Positions 14,565 to 62,913 of a DNA stretch of 64,000 bases are shown here, piece after piece. Every line of letters starts with the position of its first letter. Within the stretch, counting starts at the first letter, position 1. Below the pieces are notes generated by a model. It saw only the letters and a list, made by a program, of their open reading frames with translations, was not told where the DNA came from and made no database searches. A program made the translations under genes and the position numbers. Where the stretch lies: positions 15,169-79,168 of the forward strand of contig JAULTD010000003.1 of assembly GCA_038801785.1 (NCBI GenBank), given 5' to 3'. Source of the DNA: Candidatus Methanomethylicaceae archaeon GD_Cm_T35_P0_bin.15 (GTDB taxonomy: Archaea; Thermoproteota; Methanomethylicia; Methanomethylicales; Methanomethylicaceae).

Positions 14565-15614
14565 TCAGCGCCGGTAGAAGCGGTCCAGCAGGGCGCTGGC
14601 CTCCGAGCCCCAGTCGAGGTCGCTGAAGCGGGACGGCTGGATGATCTCCGCCAGCTGCATCTCGCCGATCACCATCCTCGGCCCCCAGTCTAGGTACGCG
14701 CCCGGGTCCTTGTAGCCTATGAGCAGCTTGAAGACGCTGCCGCTCCTGACAGCGTCCAGCTCGTCCCACAGCGCCCCCGTGAGGTTGAGCTTCGAGAGGG
14801 CCTCCGAGTCCCTGCTGACGACCACTATGATGTCGGGGTTCCACGCGAGTATCCGCTCGAACGCCACCTGGTAAGACTGCTGGCCGGGGGAGTCCCTGAG
14901 GGCCAAGTTGATGCCGCCCACGTCCTCCACGGCCTTCCCCCAGACGCTGTTGGCGTATACGTATATCTTACCCTCGCTCCAGACGTCGAGGGAGCAGATC
15001 AGGACGCGGGGCTTCTCCGAGTCCGGGATCGACGAGGCCCTTGAGAGGACCGCAGAGTGCCTGCTCTCGAGATAGTCCGCCAGCTCTTCTGCCCTCGCCT
15101 CCGTCCCGAGGGCGCCCCCGATAATCCTAATGGCCCGGAGCTGGTCAGCCATGCTCTGCGAGGAGATCGCCACCACGCTGATGTTGAGGCGTTCCAGGCT
15201 CGCCACCAGGTCCTGGGAGGAGCCATAGCCGTAATCAGTTATCACCAGATCAGGCTTCAGCGCGACGAGCGTCTCGATGTTTATGCCCCTGAAGAGGTCG
15301 CCGACCACGGTCTGGCTCCTGACGCTTTCTGGAACGAAGACCGAGTCCCTGGTGTACTTGTCTATGCCGACGATCCTCTCGCCACAGTCAAGGACGCAGG
15401 CGATCTCGGTCCAGTAGGACCCGATGACAACCACCCGCTGCACGGGCGCCGGGACCTGGACGACCCTGCCCGCCATGTCGATGACTGTGCCCTCCCCGGT
15501 CCCGGGGGCGGGCGGGGACATCACTCCTGAGAGGAAGCAGGCGCCTGCAGCTATGGCTGCGATGGCGATGATTATGATGACCGCATAAACGTTACCAAAG
15601 GCTCTCCTGTTCAA
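14565..15614 (-). CDS. Fe/B12-type ABC substrate-binding protein with N-terminal membrane anchor
   Basis: DMAGRVV..P..VQRVV, NIETLVALKPDLV, FERILAWNPDIIV. Confidence 0.9.
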   Translation of the reverse strand: MNRRAFGNVYAVIIIIAIAAIAAGACFLSGVMSPPAPGTGEGTVIDMAGRVVQVPAPVQRVVVIGSYWTEIACVLDCGERIVGIDKYTRDSVFVPESVRSQTVVGDLFRGINIETLVALKPDLVITDYGYGSSQDLVASLERLNISVVAISSQSMADQLRAIRIIGGALGTEARAEELADYLESRHSAVLSRASSIPDSEKPRVLICSLDVWSEGKIYVYANSVWGKAVEDVGGINLALRDSPGQQSYQVAFERILAWNPDIIVVVSRDSEALSKLNLTGALWDELDAVRSGSVFKLLIGYKDPGAYLDWGPRMVIGEMQLAEIIQPSRFSDLDWGSEASALLDRFYRR

Positions 15615-57945: not shown

Positions 57946-58398
57946 TTAGAGCCTGGTCCCGACGTTCTCCTTGATCTCCTTGAGGACGATGGCGGTCTCC
58001 GTGCTCGAGACGCCCTCAACAGCACCGATCGAGTCGATCACCTTGGCGAGGGACTCTTTATCGCTCACGTCCACCCGCAGGATGAGGTAGAACGGCCCGG
58101 TGACGTCGTACGCCTCGGTTATCTCGTCCAGTTCCCTCACTACGCTGAGCACGTCAGCGTACTTCCTGGGGTCTGCTTTCACGAGTATGAAGGCCGAGAG
58201 GTTCTTCCCGATCTTGGCGGGGGCGACCACTGCCCTGAAGGCCTTAATGATGCCCAGCTGCTGGAGGCGCTTAACCCTCAGGAAGACCGTTGCCTCGCTG
58301 ACTCCTGCCTCCTTGGCGATCTTTGAGAATGGCATCCGTGCGTTCTGCTGCAGGTTGTTAACGATAATTCTGTCGAGATCGTCGATTTCCGCCGACAT
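57946..58398 (-). CDS. Lrp/AsnC family transcriptional regulator
   Basis: DDLDR.I...LQ.NAR..FSKIA...GVSEATV..RV.RL HTH; VTG.F RAM domain. Confidence 0.95.
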   Translation of the reverse strand: MSAEIDDLDRIIVNNLQQNARMPFSKIAKEAGVSEATVFLRVKRLQQLGIIKAFRAVVAPAKIGKNLSAFILVKADPRKYADVLSVVRELDEITEAYDVTGPFYLILRVDVSDKESLAKVIDSIGAVEGVSSTETAIVLKEIKENVGTRL

Positions 58399-58502: not shown

Positions 58503-59264
58503 CTATCGGTATTCGAACCTCAGGGCGTGCATTATCAGGCACTGCTCGGCGGGGATCAGCGCCTCCTCGATAGTGTGGCCCTCACCGAAAGTGACGGGCG
58601 CGCCCCTAACGATGGCGATTGGCACAGACTCAGAGGTCTCGCCCATCACCAGCCGCGCGGCAGATGCCAGGTCGTCGGCCACGGCCGAGCGCTTCACCTT
58701 CATCGGCCGACCGTAGAGGTCAGGCCTGCCCCGCAGGTCCTCGACCGGGGCGAAGCCCGAGACGCCTATGGCCACGGCGCTGCTCCCCATCCTCAGCGGA
58801 AGCGTCCGGCTGTCTGTCACCAGGACGGCGGCATCGATACCCCTCCCCCTGAAGGCCTCCCGGAGGGCCTCGGCGGACTTTTGGGGGTCCCTCGGCCAGA
58901 GGGCGGCGTACCCGACCGGCGCGTTAGAGTTGTCGGCGCCCCCGTTGGCGATCAAGATCCCCCTCTTGAGGGTGAGGAGGGCGTGCCTTACCCCGCCGAG
59001 GATCGCGTCGGACTCCCGGACGACGACCTCCGCAAATGCGGGCTCGAGGTCGAATTTCCCGGCGAGAAGGACCGCCTTCTCCGACGGCTTGACCTCAGAG
59101 AGCCGGACCAGGCGCCCCTCCGATGCCCCTATCGCCTTTGCCGAGAAGACCACTATATCCCCGCCCCTGAGGGGGGTCCCTGCCAGGTTGGAGCGGTCGA
59201 TCGCGAGGGAGACGAGGTCGTCCCCGGGCTTGACAGTTGGAACTTTCACGCCGTAGACCTGCAA
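58503..59264 (-). CDS. cofE: Coenzyme F420-0:gamma-glutamyl ligase (CofE family)
   Basis: P.VKPGDDL, EGR.V.L, ANGGAD.SN, P.DP..SA, TDSR..P.R.G, DL.GR, AD.LASAA..VMGE..E..P. Confidence 0.85.
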   Translation of the reverse strand: MQVYGVKVPTVKPGDDLVSLAIDRSNLAGTPLRGGDIVVFSAKAIGASEGRLVRLSEVKPSEKAVLLAGKFDLEPAFAEVVVRESDAILGGVRHALLTLKRGILIANGGADNSNAPVGYAALWPRDPQKSAEALREAFRGRGIDAAVLVTDSRTLPLRMGSSAVAIGVSGFAPVEDLRGRPDLYGRPMKVKRSAVADDLASAARLVMGETSESVPIAIVRGAPVTFGEGHTIEEALIPAEQCLIMHALRFEYR

Positions 59265-59310
59265 GCGGCAGACCCCACAAGCAGTCCATGCGGCCGGCAT
59301 CTATAAAACC

Positions 59311-59345
59311 TTTTATAATAAGCCCCACCATCCTTCCAGCGGTGA
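59311..59345 (+). promoter_or_regulatory. TATA box and Shine-Dalgarno of purA
   Basis: TTTTATAA at 59311-59318; GGTGA at 59341-59345, 5 nt before ATG 59351. Confidence 0.6.
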
Positions 59346-59350
59346 GATTG

Positions 59351-60394
59351 ATGCCAGTTACGGTTCTAGTTGGCGGCTTCTTCGGAGACGAGGGGAAAAA
59401 CAGCGCGCGCTAGCGGCTGTTCCCCAGAGGCAAGATAGCCGCCTACCTCGGGTTTAAGGACAACTACAAGTTGGCAGTGAGGACTGGATCGATCAACGCA
59501 GGCCATACGCTGGTCCACGGCGGGAAGGAGATCAAACTGCGGATCGTCCCCTGCGCATTTGTCAGCGAGGGCACGAGGCTCCTAGTCGGAGCGGGCGCCC
59601 TCTACAGCAGGGAGCAGTTCTTCAGGGAGGTGGAGCTGACAGGCACCCGGGGAAGGATATTCGTCGATGCCGGGAGCGGGGTGATCACCCCGGAGCACAT
59701 CCAGAAGGAGAGGAGCGACGAGTTCCTGATGAAGAAGGTCGGGTCGACTGGTTCAGGGGTGGGCACCGCGTCGGTCGAGAGGGTGCTCCGTGTACTAAAG
59801 CTGGCAAAGGACTTTGAGGACCTCGCGCCGTACTCGACAGATGTGCTGAGGGAGGTCCATGACTGTCTTAAGGTGGGAGGGAACGTCCTCTTGGAGGGGA
59901 CGCAGGGGTTCTACCTCTCACTCTACCACGGAGGCTACCCGTTCGTAACGAGCAGGGATGTCTCGGCGTCGGCGGTCTGCAGTGAGGTGGGTGTCGGGCC
60001 CAAGGACGTGGACGAGGTCGTGGTGGTCTTCAAGTCGTACGTCACCAGGGTCGGCGGCGGGCCCCTGGAGGGCGAACTCCCGGAGGACGAGGCCGTGAGG
60101 AGGGGGTGGATGGAGATCGCCACCGTAACCGGGAGGAAGAGGAGGGCGGCGCCCTTCAACTATGCGCTAGCGGAGAGGGCGCTCAGGGCGAACTCCGGGA
60201 CCCAGATAGCCCTCACGAAGCTGGATGCGGTCTTCCCCGCATGCAGGGGGGCGACCTCGTACGAGAGGCTGCCGGACGCGGCAAAGGGCTTCGTGAAGGA
60301 GATCGAGGACAACCTGGGCACCCCAGTCACGATAATCGGGACTGGACCGGGGACTACTGAGATCGTCGACCGCAGGGAGGGGGGGCGGGTCTAG
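59351..60394 (+). CDS. purA: Adenylosuccinate synthetase (short archaeal type); predicted join(59351..59397,59428..60394), 337 aa after intron removal
   Basis: MPVTVLVGGFFGDEGK|GKIAAYL...NAGHT...GSTGSGVG...EGTQG..LSL..G.YPFVTS...VTRVGGGP...TVTGR.RR...TKLD...GTGP; the ORF track (59471 start) misses the P-loop because of an in-frame TAG inside the insertion. Confidence 0.93.
59398..59427 (+). other. Predicted 30-nt bulge-helix-bulge/loop type intron in the purA mRNA
   Basis: GGGG(59392-95)/CCCC(59422-25) 4-bp helix flanked by 3-nt AAA and AGA; inner stem AACAGC/GCTGTT; cutting AA^A and AG^A yields GAG GGG AAA GGC AAG = EGKGK. Confidence 0.85.
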
Positions 60395-60483: not shown

Positions 60484-60531
60484 TTCATTTCATTTCAGTT
60501 CATTTCAGTTCATTTCATTTCATTTCATTTC
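60484..60531 (+). repeat. Pentanucleotide microsatellite (TTTCA/GTTCA) x~9 between convergent genes
   Basis: ttcatttcatttcagttcatttcagttcatttcatttcatttcatttc. Confidence 0.85.
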
Positions 60532-60992
60532 TTCTCGCTCTTCTCGCCTACATCCTCGCCCATCGAGCCTGCCTTCTTTTTGGCTGTCCGGGCGGTGCCG
60601 ATCCCGCCGGAAACAGGGTGTTTCTCCCTACGCAGGCGCATGATCAGACGGGCCAGTGCCGAATCGGCACAGAGGAGGGCCCCGAGCGTCCCTTCGAGGT
60701 CGCCCTTACCAAACAGCTCCCTTGCGCCGAGGAGGTGTTCGGTCACATGGCAGAGCGCCCGCTCAGGCCCGGTCCCCCTCGCGGGCGGAGGCCGGGCCGC
60801 CAGGCCGTATGTCAGCCTGAGGAGGACGATCGCGTACTGGACCTCCAGTCTGCAGAGAAGGACCGTCTTGTAGAGCTGCATACCCGCCCCCGAGGAGAGC
60901 AGGTCGGACGCAGAGCCGACAGATCGCAGCGCCTTTGCGAGCGCATCGTCTAGGGCTGGCATGGGGTCGGCGGGAGCCGGGCTGGCGGTCAA
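60525..60992 (-). CDS. Hypothetical helical protein downstream of glmS
   Basis: ORF starts 13 nt after the glmS stop with GAGG upstream; no recognised motif. Confidence 0.5.
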   Translation of the reverse strand: MTASPAPADPMPALDDALAKALRSVGSASDLLSSGAGMQLYKTVLLCRLEVQYAIVLLRLTYGLAARPPPARGTGPERALCHVTEHLLGARELFGKGDLEGTLGALLCADSALARLIMRLRREKHPVSGGIGTARTAKKKAGSMGEDVGEKSEKK

Positions 60993-61005: not shown

Positions 61006-62826
61006 TCAGAGGACTGTTACGGACTTTGCCAAGTTCCGCGGCTTGTCGGGGTCCAGTCCCCTGAAGGTCGCGACGTAGTAGGCAAAGAGCTGGAGGGGGA
61101 CGGTGCAGACTATCGGCGTTATGAACTCGGGCACTTCGGGGACCTCAAAGTAATCGTCGGATATAGTCTGGAGCTCCTCATCCCCTTCCGTGATTATCGA
61201 GAAGATCTCGGCGCCCCTTGCCTTCATCTCCATCATGTTGCCGATCACCCTGCTCCGGGCAGAGTCCTTTGGGGCGGCGAAGACGCAGAGGAACCCCGGT
61301 TCTACGAGGGAGATCGGACCATGCTTCGACTCGCCCGCGGGGTAGCCCTCCGCGTGTATGTAGCTGATCTCCTTGAGCTTGAGGGCACCCTCCAGCGCGG
61401 TGGCAACGTTGAGGCCCCTTGCGAGGAAGAAGGCGTCCCTCTTGAGGGAGTGCTTCAGGGCGATCTCCTCTATCTTCTTGGAGCCGCGGAGTATCCTCTC
61501 TACCAGGTCCGGGACCCCGGCGAGCTGCTCCCTCTTCAGGGAGTACGCCTCCTCGGAGAGTATCCCCCTCCTCAGCCCGGTCCTCAGCATCAGCATCTCG
61601 AGGGCGACCAGCTGCGTCAGGAGCGTCTTCGTGGCCGCGACCCCTATCTCGGGACCGCTCTGGGTGCAGATATAGGTGCTGGAGAGGGTCGTTATCGAGC
61701 TCCCGAGCGTATTGGTAATCCCGACGATGGTGGCACCCTGGCTCCTCGCGTATTTCAGGGCGTTCAGCGTATCGGCGGTCTCGCCAGACTGTGAGACGCC
61801 TACCACAGTGCTTCCCTTGAGGTTGTTGACGGCGTCCTGAAACTCGGAGGAGATGACGGCCCTGACGTTCATGCCGAGGAGCTTTGAGAAGAGGTACGAG
61901 GCGGTAAGGCAGGCGTGATATGACGTGCCAGACCCGGTCAGGTACACCTCCCCCTTCATAAGCTCGGAGGCCCTGTCCAGGAAGTGGGGGGAGATCTTGA
62001 GCGTCTCCCGGATAGCGGCAGGCTGCTCGAACATCTCCTTGAGCATGAAGTGGGGATAGCCGCCCTTCTCGGACATCTTCGAATCCCAGGTGATCTCGAC
62101 GTAGCTGGGGTCCTTGGGCCGGCCCCAGATATCCTCGAGGGTAACCCCGCCCCTCGTCAGGACGGCGACCTCGTCGTCCTGCATCACGAGCACCCTCCTG
62201 GTGAACGGGAGGAGGGCGGTCGTATCCGAGGCGCAGTAGGTGCCGCTGCAGTTGCAGTTGCCGCTGCCGCTGCCGCTGATGCCGATGACGAGGGGGCTCT
62301 CCTTCTTCACGCAGATTATCTTGTCGGGCTCGGAACTGGAGATGACGGCCAGTGCGAAGGAGCCCTTGAGGGATTGGACTGCACGGACGGTGGCCTCCTT
62401 AAGGCGGAGACCGGATTTGATCCCGTCCTCGATCAGGTGGGAGATCACCTCGGTGTCGGTGTTGGAGAGGAACCTGTGCCCCCGCTTCAAGAGGTCCTCC
62501 TTCAGCGGGATAAAATTTTCAAGGACGCCGTTGTGAGCCACGGCGATGGTTTTAGAACAATCGAGGTGAGGGTGGGCGTTCTCCCTACAGGGAGCTCCGT
62601 GAGTCGCCCACCTCGTGTGGCCTACCCCTATATCCCCCGAAAGTCTAGAGAGATCTAGACTGTTAATAAATTCGGCGATCTTCCCTTTATCCTTTTCCAA
62701 TCGTATGCCATTGTTCTGGATTACAGCCACTCCGACCGAGTCATAGCCGCGGTACTCTAGCCTCTTTAGGCCTTCAAGGATTGCGACGGTAGCCCCGTCA
62801 CAGAGGCAGCCAAAGATACCGCACAC
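61006..62826 (-). CDS. glmS: Glutamine--fructose-6-phosphate transaminase
   Basis: (M)CGIFG, LEYRGYDS, GHTRWATHG, HNG, SQSGETADT, GPEIGVAATKT, EGALKLKEISY, KPRNLAKSVTV. Confidence 0.97.
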   Translation of the reverse strand: MCGIFGCLCDGATVAILEGLKRLEYRGYDSVGVAVIQNNGIRLEKDKGKIAEFINSLDLSRLSGDIGVGHTRWATHGAPCRENAHPHLDCSKTIAVAHNGVLENFIPLKEDLLKRGHRFLSNTDTEVISHLIEDGIKSGLRLKEATVRAVQSLKGSFALAVISSSEPDKIICVKKESPLVIGISGSGSGNCNCSGTYCASDTTALLPFTRRVLVMQDDEVAVLTRGGVTLEDIWGRPKDPSYVEITWDSKMSEKGGYPHFMLKEMFEQPAAIRETLKISPHFLDRASELMKGEVYLTGSGTSYHACLTASYLFSKLLGMNVRAVISSEFQDAVNNLKGSTVVGVSQSGETADTLNALKYARSQGATIVGITNTLGSSITTLSSTYICTQSGPEIGVAATKTLLTQLVALEMLMLRTGLRRGILSEEAYSLKREQLAGVPDLVERILRGSKKIEEIALKHSLKRDAFFLARGLNVATALEGALKLKEISYIHAEGYPAGESKHGPISLVEPGFLCVFAAPKDSARSRVIGNMMEMKARGAEIFSIITEGDEELQTISDDYFEVPEVPEFITPIVCTVPLQLFAYYVATFRGLDPDKPRNLAKSVTVL

Positions 62827-62913
62827 CGGAGACACCAGACTGTATATTAAATGCCTAATTAAAAAAATGTATCTGAGTCTGACGCCGTCCCTCTTAATCG
62901 GAAGGCACCGGGA

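Follow-up and report, generated by a model that had tools for sequence, protein, structure and literature searches.

The purA locus and an insert in its P-loop codons

The window analyzed here, a stretch of 64,000 nt, covers positions 15,169 to 79,168 of contig JAULTD010000003.1 (GenBank assembly GCA_038801785.1) of Candidatus Methanomethylicaceae archaeon GD_Cm_T35_P0_bin.15. On its plus strand it contains a purA gene in which 30 extra nt with an in-frame TAG lie inside the codons for the GDEGKGK P-loop. The frame that begins at ATG 59351 reads MPVTVLVGGFFGDEGK-NSAR, reaches the TAG at 59411-59413, continues as RLFPR-GKIAAYL, and is then open to the TAG at 60392-60394 (translation 59351-60394). 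Thus, the peptide M-P-V-T-V-L-V-G-G-F-F-G-D-E-G-K is followed by ten extra codons, and then by G-K-I-A-A-Y-L. The product is adenylosuccinate synthetase (Pfam PF00709, Adenylsucc_synt, match at 2.6e-60), and the sole irregularity relative to the solved chain 2d7u_A is a clean 10-residue gap in that chain, placed exactly between GDEGK and G. Sequence, translation, Pfam match, and alignment to 2d7u_A all agree with the first-pass annotation of this DNA, which had described a 30-nt insert with a TAG in an otherwise intact purA.

The expression signals that had been assigned to this start codon are also present, namely, a TATA-like A/T box TTTTATAA (59311-59318, plus strand), located 33-40 nt upstream of the ATG, for which a promoter role is plausible, and a Shine-Dalgarno-like GGTGA (59341-59345, plus strand), which ends 5 nt before the start codon. 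In the relatives, a TTTATA-type box is found at a similar distance upstream of purA, and GGTGA precedes the purA start in their loci, too. With the splice points derived below, exon 1 spans 59351-59397 (Met1 through Gly15 and the first two nucleotides of the codon for Lys16), the candidate intron spans 59398-59427 (30 nt), and exon 2 spans 59428-60394 (from the third base of Lys16 to the stop codon), all on the plus strand. The peptide encoded by exon 1, V-G-G-F-F/Y-G-D-E-G-K, is conserved in all intron-bearing relatives.

Gene callers report a different product, a 307-aa frame with a TTG start (59471-60394, plus strand) that does not include the P-loop, and an identical protein is present in the public collection (P0002). 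For genomes with 22-nt or 28-nt introns, the public purA proteins begin in the wrong frame and read ...A-A-S-S-E-T-R-G-K-A... across exon 1 and the intron (P0003, P0004, P0014-P0016, P0029-P0031, P0034, P0035), but are still named adenylosuccinate synthetase. The expectation that automated annotation would miscall such genes was thus borne out by truncated and misframed entries. Because the public purA calls are devoid of the P-loop, metabolic reconstructions of these methanogens may score purA as defective.

PF00709 matches at one place only, so that the assembly (1.49 Mb, 8 contigs, 74.9% complete) contains a single purA. A second intact copy, which would have indicated decay of the interrupted one, was found neither in this incompletely assembled genome nor in the relatives searched, and the single-contig genomes G014 and G007 have one purA each.

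Predicted fold, motif class, and splice points

The insert and its borders fold around a central helix (H) that is formed by GGGG at the end of exon 1 (59392-59395) and CCCC within the intron (59422-59425). The 5' strand of this helix is followed by an AAA bulge (59396-59398) and by an inner hairpin (h', 59399-59421), which carries the in-frame TAG in its loop region, whereas the 3' strand is followed by AGA (59426-59428), located in a single-stranded segment of 7 nt. In the minimum free energy (MFE) fold of this particular sequence, the 5' bulge slides by one A, adding the pair A59396-U59421. Two further elements, both in exon sequence, appear in the MFE fold. A distal exon-exon helix joins 59372-59382 to 59432-59443, with pairing of 59372-59381 to 59433-59443 in the MFE structure, and a small hairpin, UCG-GAGA-CGA (59382-59391), lies directly 5' of the central helix; all these elements are on the plus strand. 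Two pairs of the small hairpin are kept by RNAalifold, its changes being to G-U only, and in the modeled structure it may substitute for an outer helix by stacking on the central one.

The motif has a central helix, one true bulge, an inner helix, and the other site in a loop, and thereby belongs to the relaxed bulge-helix-loop (BHL, or HBh') class. It differs from the canonical bulge-helix-bulge (BHB, or hBHBh') motif in that the 3' AGA forms no closed 3-nt bulge and has no adjoining outer helix. The AGA is located in a single-stranded joint, and the motif is therefore assigned to the relaxed class and not to the canonical one. The fold that had been drawn before, likewise named a relaxed bulge-helix-loop, is recovered as the MFE structure.

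The archaeal enzyme cleaves each bulge after its second residue, according to a report on cbf5 (PMC2738675). Applied to purA, this rule removes 59398-59427 and leaves GGG AAA GGC AAG, as had been predicted from the cuts AA^A and AG^A. The same rule restores G-D-E-G-K-G-K in all 22 sequences of the family and in the three sequences read from a second family (f6). The predicted spliced product equals the intron-less alleles described below and, at the P-loop, the solved homologue 2d7u_A.

In the mechanism that we propose, purA would be transcribed with a 30-nt archaeal BHB-type intron in the GDEGKGK codons. In the pre-mRNA, GGGG of exon 1 would pair with CCCC of the intron, so that the AAA bulge and the covarying inner hairpin would follow the helix on the 5' strand, and AGA would be presented in the single-stranded joint on the 3' strand. 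An alpha-beta splicing endonuclease (EndA), the catalytic subunit of which carries the crenarchaeal loop, would cut after 59397 and after 59427, and RtcB would join the exons to a message for an adenylosuccinate synthetase of 337 residues. Unspliced RNA would yield a 20-residue peptide only. Cleavage at the two sites, joining of the exons, and what becomes of the intron are what we infer from these data.

Conservation, gain, and loss of the insert in Methanomethylicia

To follow the insert beyond one genome, 40 relatives were searched together with the genome of the window, and 30 purA loci were read. The named loci among the closest purA genes, from Candidatus Methanomethylicus, Candidatus Methanosuratincola, and other Methanomethylicia, were added to the family set. 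Of 23 family genomes (own genome included) in which the N-terminal region could be read, 21 have the insert, and all 10 genera are represented among them. It is absent from G001 and G002; G005 has no purA match, and G012 has only a C-terminal piece. The 22 distinct insert sequences have lengths of 30 nt (9 sequences), 28 nt (8), 22 nt (2), and 18 nt (3), and none of them leaves the reading frame open: 12 contain an in-frame stop codon, and 10 shift the frame.

A match table extended the survey to 62 genomes of the class, 55 of which have a purA match. By this table, interruptions are found in 23 of the 26 matching genomes of the own family (f1; two not interrupted, one unclear) and in all 10 of family f6, whereas all 19 matching genomes from the other seven families are not interrupted. 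The three f6 loci that were read (L109, L110, and L111, from G039, G033, and G035, respectively) have inserts of 16-17 nt, with a helix AGGG/CCCU and the bulges AAA and A-A/G-A. In these loci the splice point lies one base upstream of that in the own family, splitting the Lys codon as A|AA, and all three inserts shift the frame.

In a maximum-likelihood tree of 33 purA proteins (L055, which is too short, was left out, and f6 was not included), the family forms one clade with support values of 100/99. Both alleles that lack the intron fall within this clade, one of them with starred support, and the tree requires three changes. This topology is consistent with one intron gain and two precise losses.

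One alternative is that purA is undergoing decay as a pseudogene, or that the insertion is tolerated, and that AMP synthesis is supplied in some other way. The in-frame stop within a core motif could be taken to favor it, as could the assembly, which is only 74.9% complete. However, the same interruption occurs in 33 of the 55 class genomes with a purA match, with no other frame break; the protein identity over the rest of the gene is 56-78%; the interrupted gene is the only copy in two single-contig genomes; and the covariation and silent-site constraint described in the next section indicate selection on RNA structure. We regard the probability of decay as negligible.

Covariation and constraint at silent sites

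The alignment of purA from close relatives, which had been suggested as a check, contains both intron-less alleles and compensatory changes in the stem. The central helix pairs at all four positions in all 22 sequences, with three pairs invariant and one changing only to G-U; its 3' strand is CCCC in 20 sequences and CCCU in two. The 5' bulge is AAA in 22 of 22, and the 3' element is A-N-A in 22 of 22 (AGA in 17, AAA in three, ATA and ACA in one each). In the inner hairpin, all five pairs adjoining the bulge have changed on both sides. Pairing amounts to 92%, compared with 50-69% in slid controls, and the observed covariation score and percentage paired were reached by none of 500 shuffles. 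RNAalifold, run independently, returned the central helix, the 3-nt bulge, and the inner helix.

The part of the motif that lies in exon 1 is constrained beyond the encoded protein. The codons GAG, GGG, and AAA occur without exception in the 22 intron-bearing sequences, versus 6, 3, and 3, respectively, of 15 intron-less sequences. Because these sequences are related to one another, the counts are descriptive and do not amount to independent tests. Judged from these comparisons, covariation and silent-site constraint point to selection on the RNA structure. In the intron-less G001, the silent sites that build the helix have drifted, with GAA GGC instead of GAG GGG.

These data also bear on a second alternative, namely, that the insert is retained in the mRNA and is dealt with during translation, either by programmed ribosomal bypass (hopping) or by a frameshift with stop-codon read-through. 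The arrangement, with a stop codon located in a stable hairpin immediately behind a take-off point, recalls gene 60 of phage T4, and every insert contains a stop codon or shifts the frame. Bypass of this type is characterized by take-off and landing codons that match each other on either side of the skipped stretch. In purA, however, AAA precedes the insert, and the insert ends in the same triplet in only three of the 22 sequences (in 19 of 22 it ends in AGA, ATA, or ACA), and there are therefore no matched take-off and landing codons. Moreover, lengths of 16, 17, 18, 22, 28, and 30 nt fit no single recoding event, and the conserved feature is the geometry of an endonuclease substrate, that is, a 4-bp helix with 3-nt elements. 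The pyrrolysyl-type enzyme PylS was not found in this 74.9%-complete assembly (best score 17.4 bits, against a cut-off of 178), and therefore the TAG is not read as pyrrolysine. Ribosomal bypass or read-through appears highly improbable.

A canonical intron candidate in the gene for aIF5B

The genome-wide scan for the same motif that the first-pass annotation had proposed was carried out with these criteria: a 4-bp helix, 3-nt bulges, an inner stem, and rescue of a coding frame. Lengths of 16-120 nt were scanned; the final ranking was restricted to 16-70 nt and to a constrained energy within 2.5 kcal/mol of the MFE. In the final list of 29 rows, ranked by energy per base, purA is second and the gene for aIF5B (a GTPase of the IF-2 type) is first; three rows are registers of purA and two are registers of aIF5B. 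The other 24 of the 29 look like chance hits, with negative or near-zero coding scores for exon 1 or with a natural start codon inside the supposed intron (e.g., C8:124990-125055). A scan class that bridges two long frames consisted of ordinary gene junctions.

The aIF5B insert, located outside of the window (G000:C7:393045-393077, minus strand; L076 2046-2078), is 33 nt long and has an in-frame TGA. It separates the codons for ...R-E-V-G-A-M from those for T-Q-H-I-G-A, just ahead of the switch-I threonine. Its motif is canonical, with an outer helix, bulge, helix, bulge, and inner helix in succession. Among the 30 loci of relatives, 29 were readable, and 25 of these contain an insert of 22-33 nt, spread over four families, whereas four have none. 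The 23 distinct inserts again interrupt the reading frame, 14 with a stop codon and nine by a frameshift. The 6-bp outer helix pairs in 22-23 of the 23 at each position, as does the central helix, and the inner helix is built from many pair types, so that covariation in this insert is heavy. The aIF5B case shows that the lineage keeps such introns in its messengers.

The two candidate introns are alike in lineage, in size class, in the stop-or-frameshift logic, and in being located in codons of a GTP site. They differ in that the aIF5B motif is canonical, with a 6-bp outer helix, and is more widely spread (four families). The losses form a mosaic: G002 has neither intron, G001 lacks only the purA intron, and G004 and G012 lack the aIF5B intron, with the purA intron retained in G004.

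Presence of the splicing machinery

The genome encodes the catalytic subunit of EndA, the best solved relatives of which are 3p1z_B and 3ajv_B (E 3e-45), and a K-P-R of this subunit aligns to K44 and R46 of these chains. These two are the conserved basic residues of the crenarchaea-specific loop, and the lysine is needed to cut bulge-helix-loop introns, according to PMC3241643; chain length and numbering suggest that 3p1z is the structure described there. A second EndA paralog, which has no catalytic His, is found in all four relatives searched. RtcB is present as a PF01139 match (1.8e-149) in an open frame of 974 aa (G000:C7:431568-434270, minus strand). This match is split into positions 1-53 and 48-426 by about 1.3 kb, a gap that has the size and layout expected of an intein. 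Aragorn reports introns in 21 of 35 tRNA genes, although five of these introns are longer than 400 nt and are doubtful. The cbf5 gene of this genome is uninterrupted (TIGR00425 match over positions 6-321, no stop codon). Of the earlier proposal that the host has an EndA accepting relaxed motifs, together with RtcB, the alpha subunit with its loop residues and the ligase are in place; the beta subunit is considered below.

In another alternative, the insert is removed from the RNA by a different agent, for instance an element that cleaves itself or a nuclease of unknown kind, and not by EndA and RtcB. The 3' site, with no canonical closed bulge, might be taken to suggest such an agent. However, inserts of 16-30 nt are far too short for group I or group II introns, and Rfam gave no match in the window at the gathering score, nor any in 59250-59550 at E values up to 1. 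In addition, the geometry is that of EndA substrates, and the EndA of this lineage has the loop shown to cut bulge-helix-loop motifs. We consider another agent extremely improbable.

RNA and protein records, and evaluation of splicing

Public RNA data were available for a relative (L037) with a 28-nt intron. Eight runs are on record, four of them as RNA; three RNA runs and one that is probably DNA were examined at the level of contigs. Runs X2 and X3 cover only the gene upstream of purA in L037, and X4, which is probably DNA, contains the intron. In X1, one contig covers L037 1452-2070, starting 7 letters before exon 2, and its first 25 letters are 16S rRNA. The fusion point is a CCCC common to both sequences, located at the 3' strand of the central helix of the intron, and the contig is probably a chimera generated by template switching or during assembly.

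Several observations limit the case for splicing of the purA messenger. In the contigs of the four L037 runs (X1-X4), no contig joins the exons, a result that speaks neither for nor against splicing, and in X1 the last letters of the intron are contiguous with exon 2, which indicates unspliced RNA or DNA in that library. Among the proteins examined (19 of at least 120 matches), an intact P-loop, as the spliced message would encode, is present only in proteins that fit intron-less lineages. The EndA beta subunit was not found in this 74.9%-complete assembly. The fold statistics are modest: the MFE of 59365-59450 is -38.7 kcal/mol (z -2.4), and five of 200 shuffles were as good; in a context of 201 nt the core of the fold persists, but the whole fold is not unusual (z -0.65). 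The 3' site is non-canonical, with neither a closed bulge nor a helix directly after it. Finally, the distal exon-exon helix, which had been put forward as an outer pairing of the exons and is indeed present in the MFE structure, shows no covariation across the 22 sequences and is broken in an AT-rich genus, which makes its function, as read from these alignments, doubtful; it may be a by-product of the Gly-Gly and Ala-Ala codons.

The same records bear on a further alternative, in which EndA cuts the purA RNA but the halves are not rejoined, so that the motif would be a site of processing or decay and the protein would start downstream, with no P-loop. The open 307-aa frame from TTG 59471 that gene callers find would fit this idea, as would the missing spliced RNA in the contigs of the relative; and a review notes that the first report of HVO_1309 cleavage did not show ligation (PMC10485636). 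However, all intron-bearing genomes that were read have retained the start codon of exon 1, GGTGA, and the complete peptide V-G-G-F-F-G-D-E-G-K; silent sites are constrained in exon 1; cuts by the bulge rule restore the exact P-loop in all sequences; and the intron-less alleles equal the predicted spliced product. Adenylosuccinate synthetase needs its P-loop for GTP binding, which also speaks against a protein that starts downstream. Cleavage with no rejoining is very unlikely in our assessment.

Splicing is favored by what was observed directly: the anatomy of the insert, which is conserved and covaries, the logic of the reading frame, the alleles that have no intron, and the enzymes that were found. 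Taken together, we consider it highly probable that purA carries a real, conserved, relaxed BHB-type intron, and that its removal is most likely the work of EndA and RtcB. According to a record title and a species description, one of the relatives with the intron has been isolated, and therefore the prediction can be tested at the bench.

Relation to known messenger introns

In a 2023 review (PMC10485636), cbf5 and HVO_1309 are the only two archaeal messengers counted as substrates of the tRNA splicing endonuclease, and more are anticipated. A literature search, which did not extend to subscription journals and supplements, found no published intron in purA nor, among the papers listed, in aIF5B, in line with the earlier statement that the cbf5 pre-mRNA intron is established and none is known in purA; the papers listed on introns in Verstraetearchaeota were unrelated by title.

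The cbf5 intron of Desulfurococcales and Sulfolobales is the closest parallel. According to PMC2738675 and PMC10485636, it is cut between the second and third residues of the bulges, its hosts have an alpha-beta endonuclease, it was gained once and then precisely lost in individual lineages, and gene callers miscall the gene. The purA intron differs in gene, lineage, and site, being located in the codons of a catalytic P-loop, 47 nt into the gene; in addition, its splicing is predicted from sequence. The HVO_1309 transcript of Haloferax volcanii is likewise an mRNA with a BHB motif that is processed by the tRNA splicing endonuclease, but, as described in PMC10485636, it belongs to a euryarchaeon with a homodimeric enzyme, and the gene is unrelated. 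The non-canonical tRNA introns of Thermoproteota share with purA the BHL/HBh' motif class and the enzyme requirement, namely, an alpha subunit with a crenarchaea-specific loop containing a lysine (PMC3241643). In purA, in contrast, the host RNA is a messenger and the exons encode protein; the structure is therefore built from codons, and the constraint on it is visible at silent sites.

In eukaryotes, the splicing of XBP1 and HAC1 mRNA is spliceosome-independent: a protein endonuclease and joining of the tRNA-ligase type remove a short mRNA intron, the protein is altered, and the process is stress-regulated. The scheme proposed for purA has in common with it the spliceosome-independent removal of a short mRNA intron, the combination of a protein endonuclease with tRNA-ligase-type joining, and the changed protein; it differs in the endonuclease, in the RNA motif, and in the stress regulation known for XBP1 and HAC1. 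IRE1/RtcB splicing of these mRNAs is mentioned in two papers (PMC8718801, PMC13149111).

The purA and aIF5B introns would add two further messenger cases, from purine synthesis and translation initiation, in a lineage different from those of cbf5 and HVO_1309. They are conserved to a depth between family and class, and their history includes gains, precise losses, and a splice point that moved by one base. If the proposed splicing is true, EndA and RtcB are needed for AMP synthesis and for an initiation factor, and not for tRNA alone.

Ligation by RtcB consumes GTP, and splicing could therefore gate on the availability of GTP and of the tRNA-splicing machinery. This suggests a putative GTP checkpoint, in which Methanomethylicia would carry old, obligatory EndA/RtcB introns within GTP-site codons of two or more core genes (the purA P-loop and aIF5B), and these introns would gate AMP synthesis together with translation initiation. 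We put this idea forward as a speculation that is unlikely to be correct; the location of both introns in GTP-binding motifs could be due to chance or to an insertion preference.

Surroundings of purA

The genes around purA are on the minus strand and encode an Lrp/AsnC regulator (57946-58398), F420-0:gamma-glutamyl ligase (58503-59300), and a GlmS-type amidotransferase (61006-62835). Pfam gave no match for a frame of 155 residues at 60525-60992, which is also on the minus strand. A tandem repeat of the pentanucleotide TTCAT (9.6 copies, 90% matches) occupies 60484-60531, some 90 nt past the stop codon of purA, and it is followed by two copies of TCTTCTCGC at 60530-60547.

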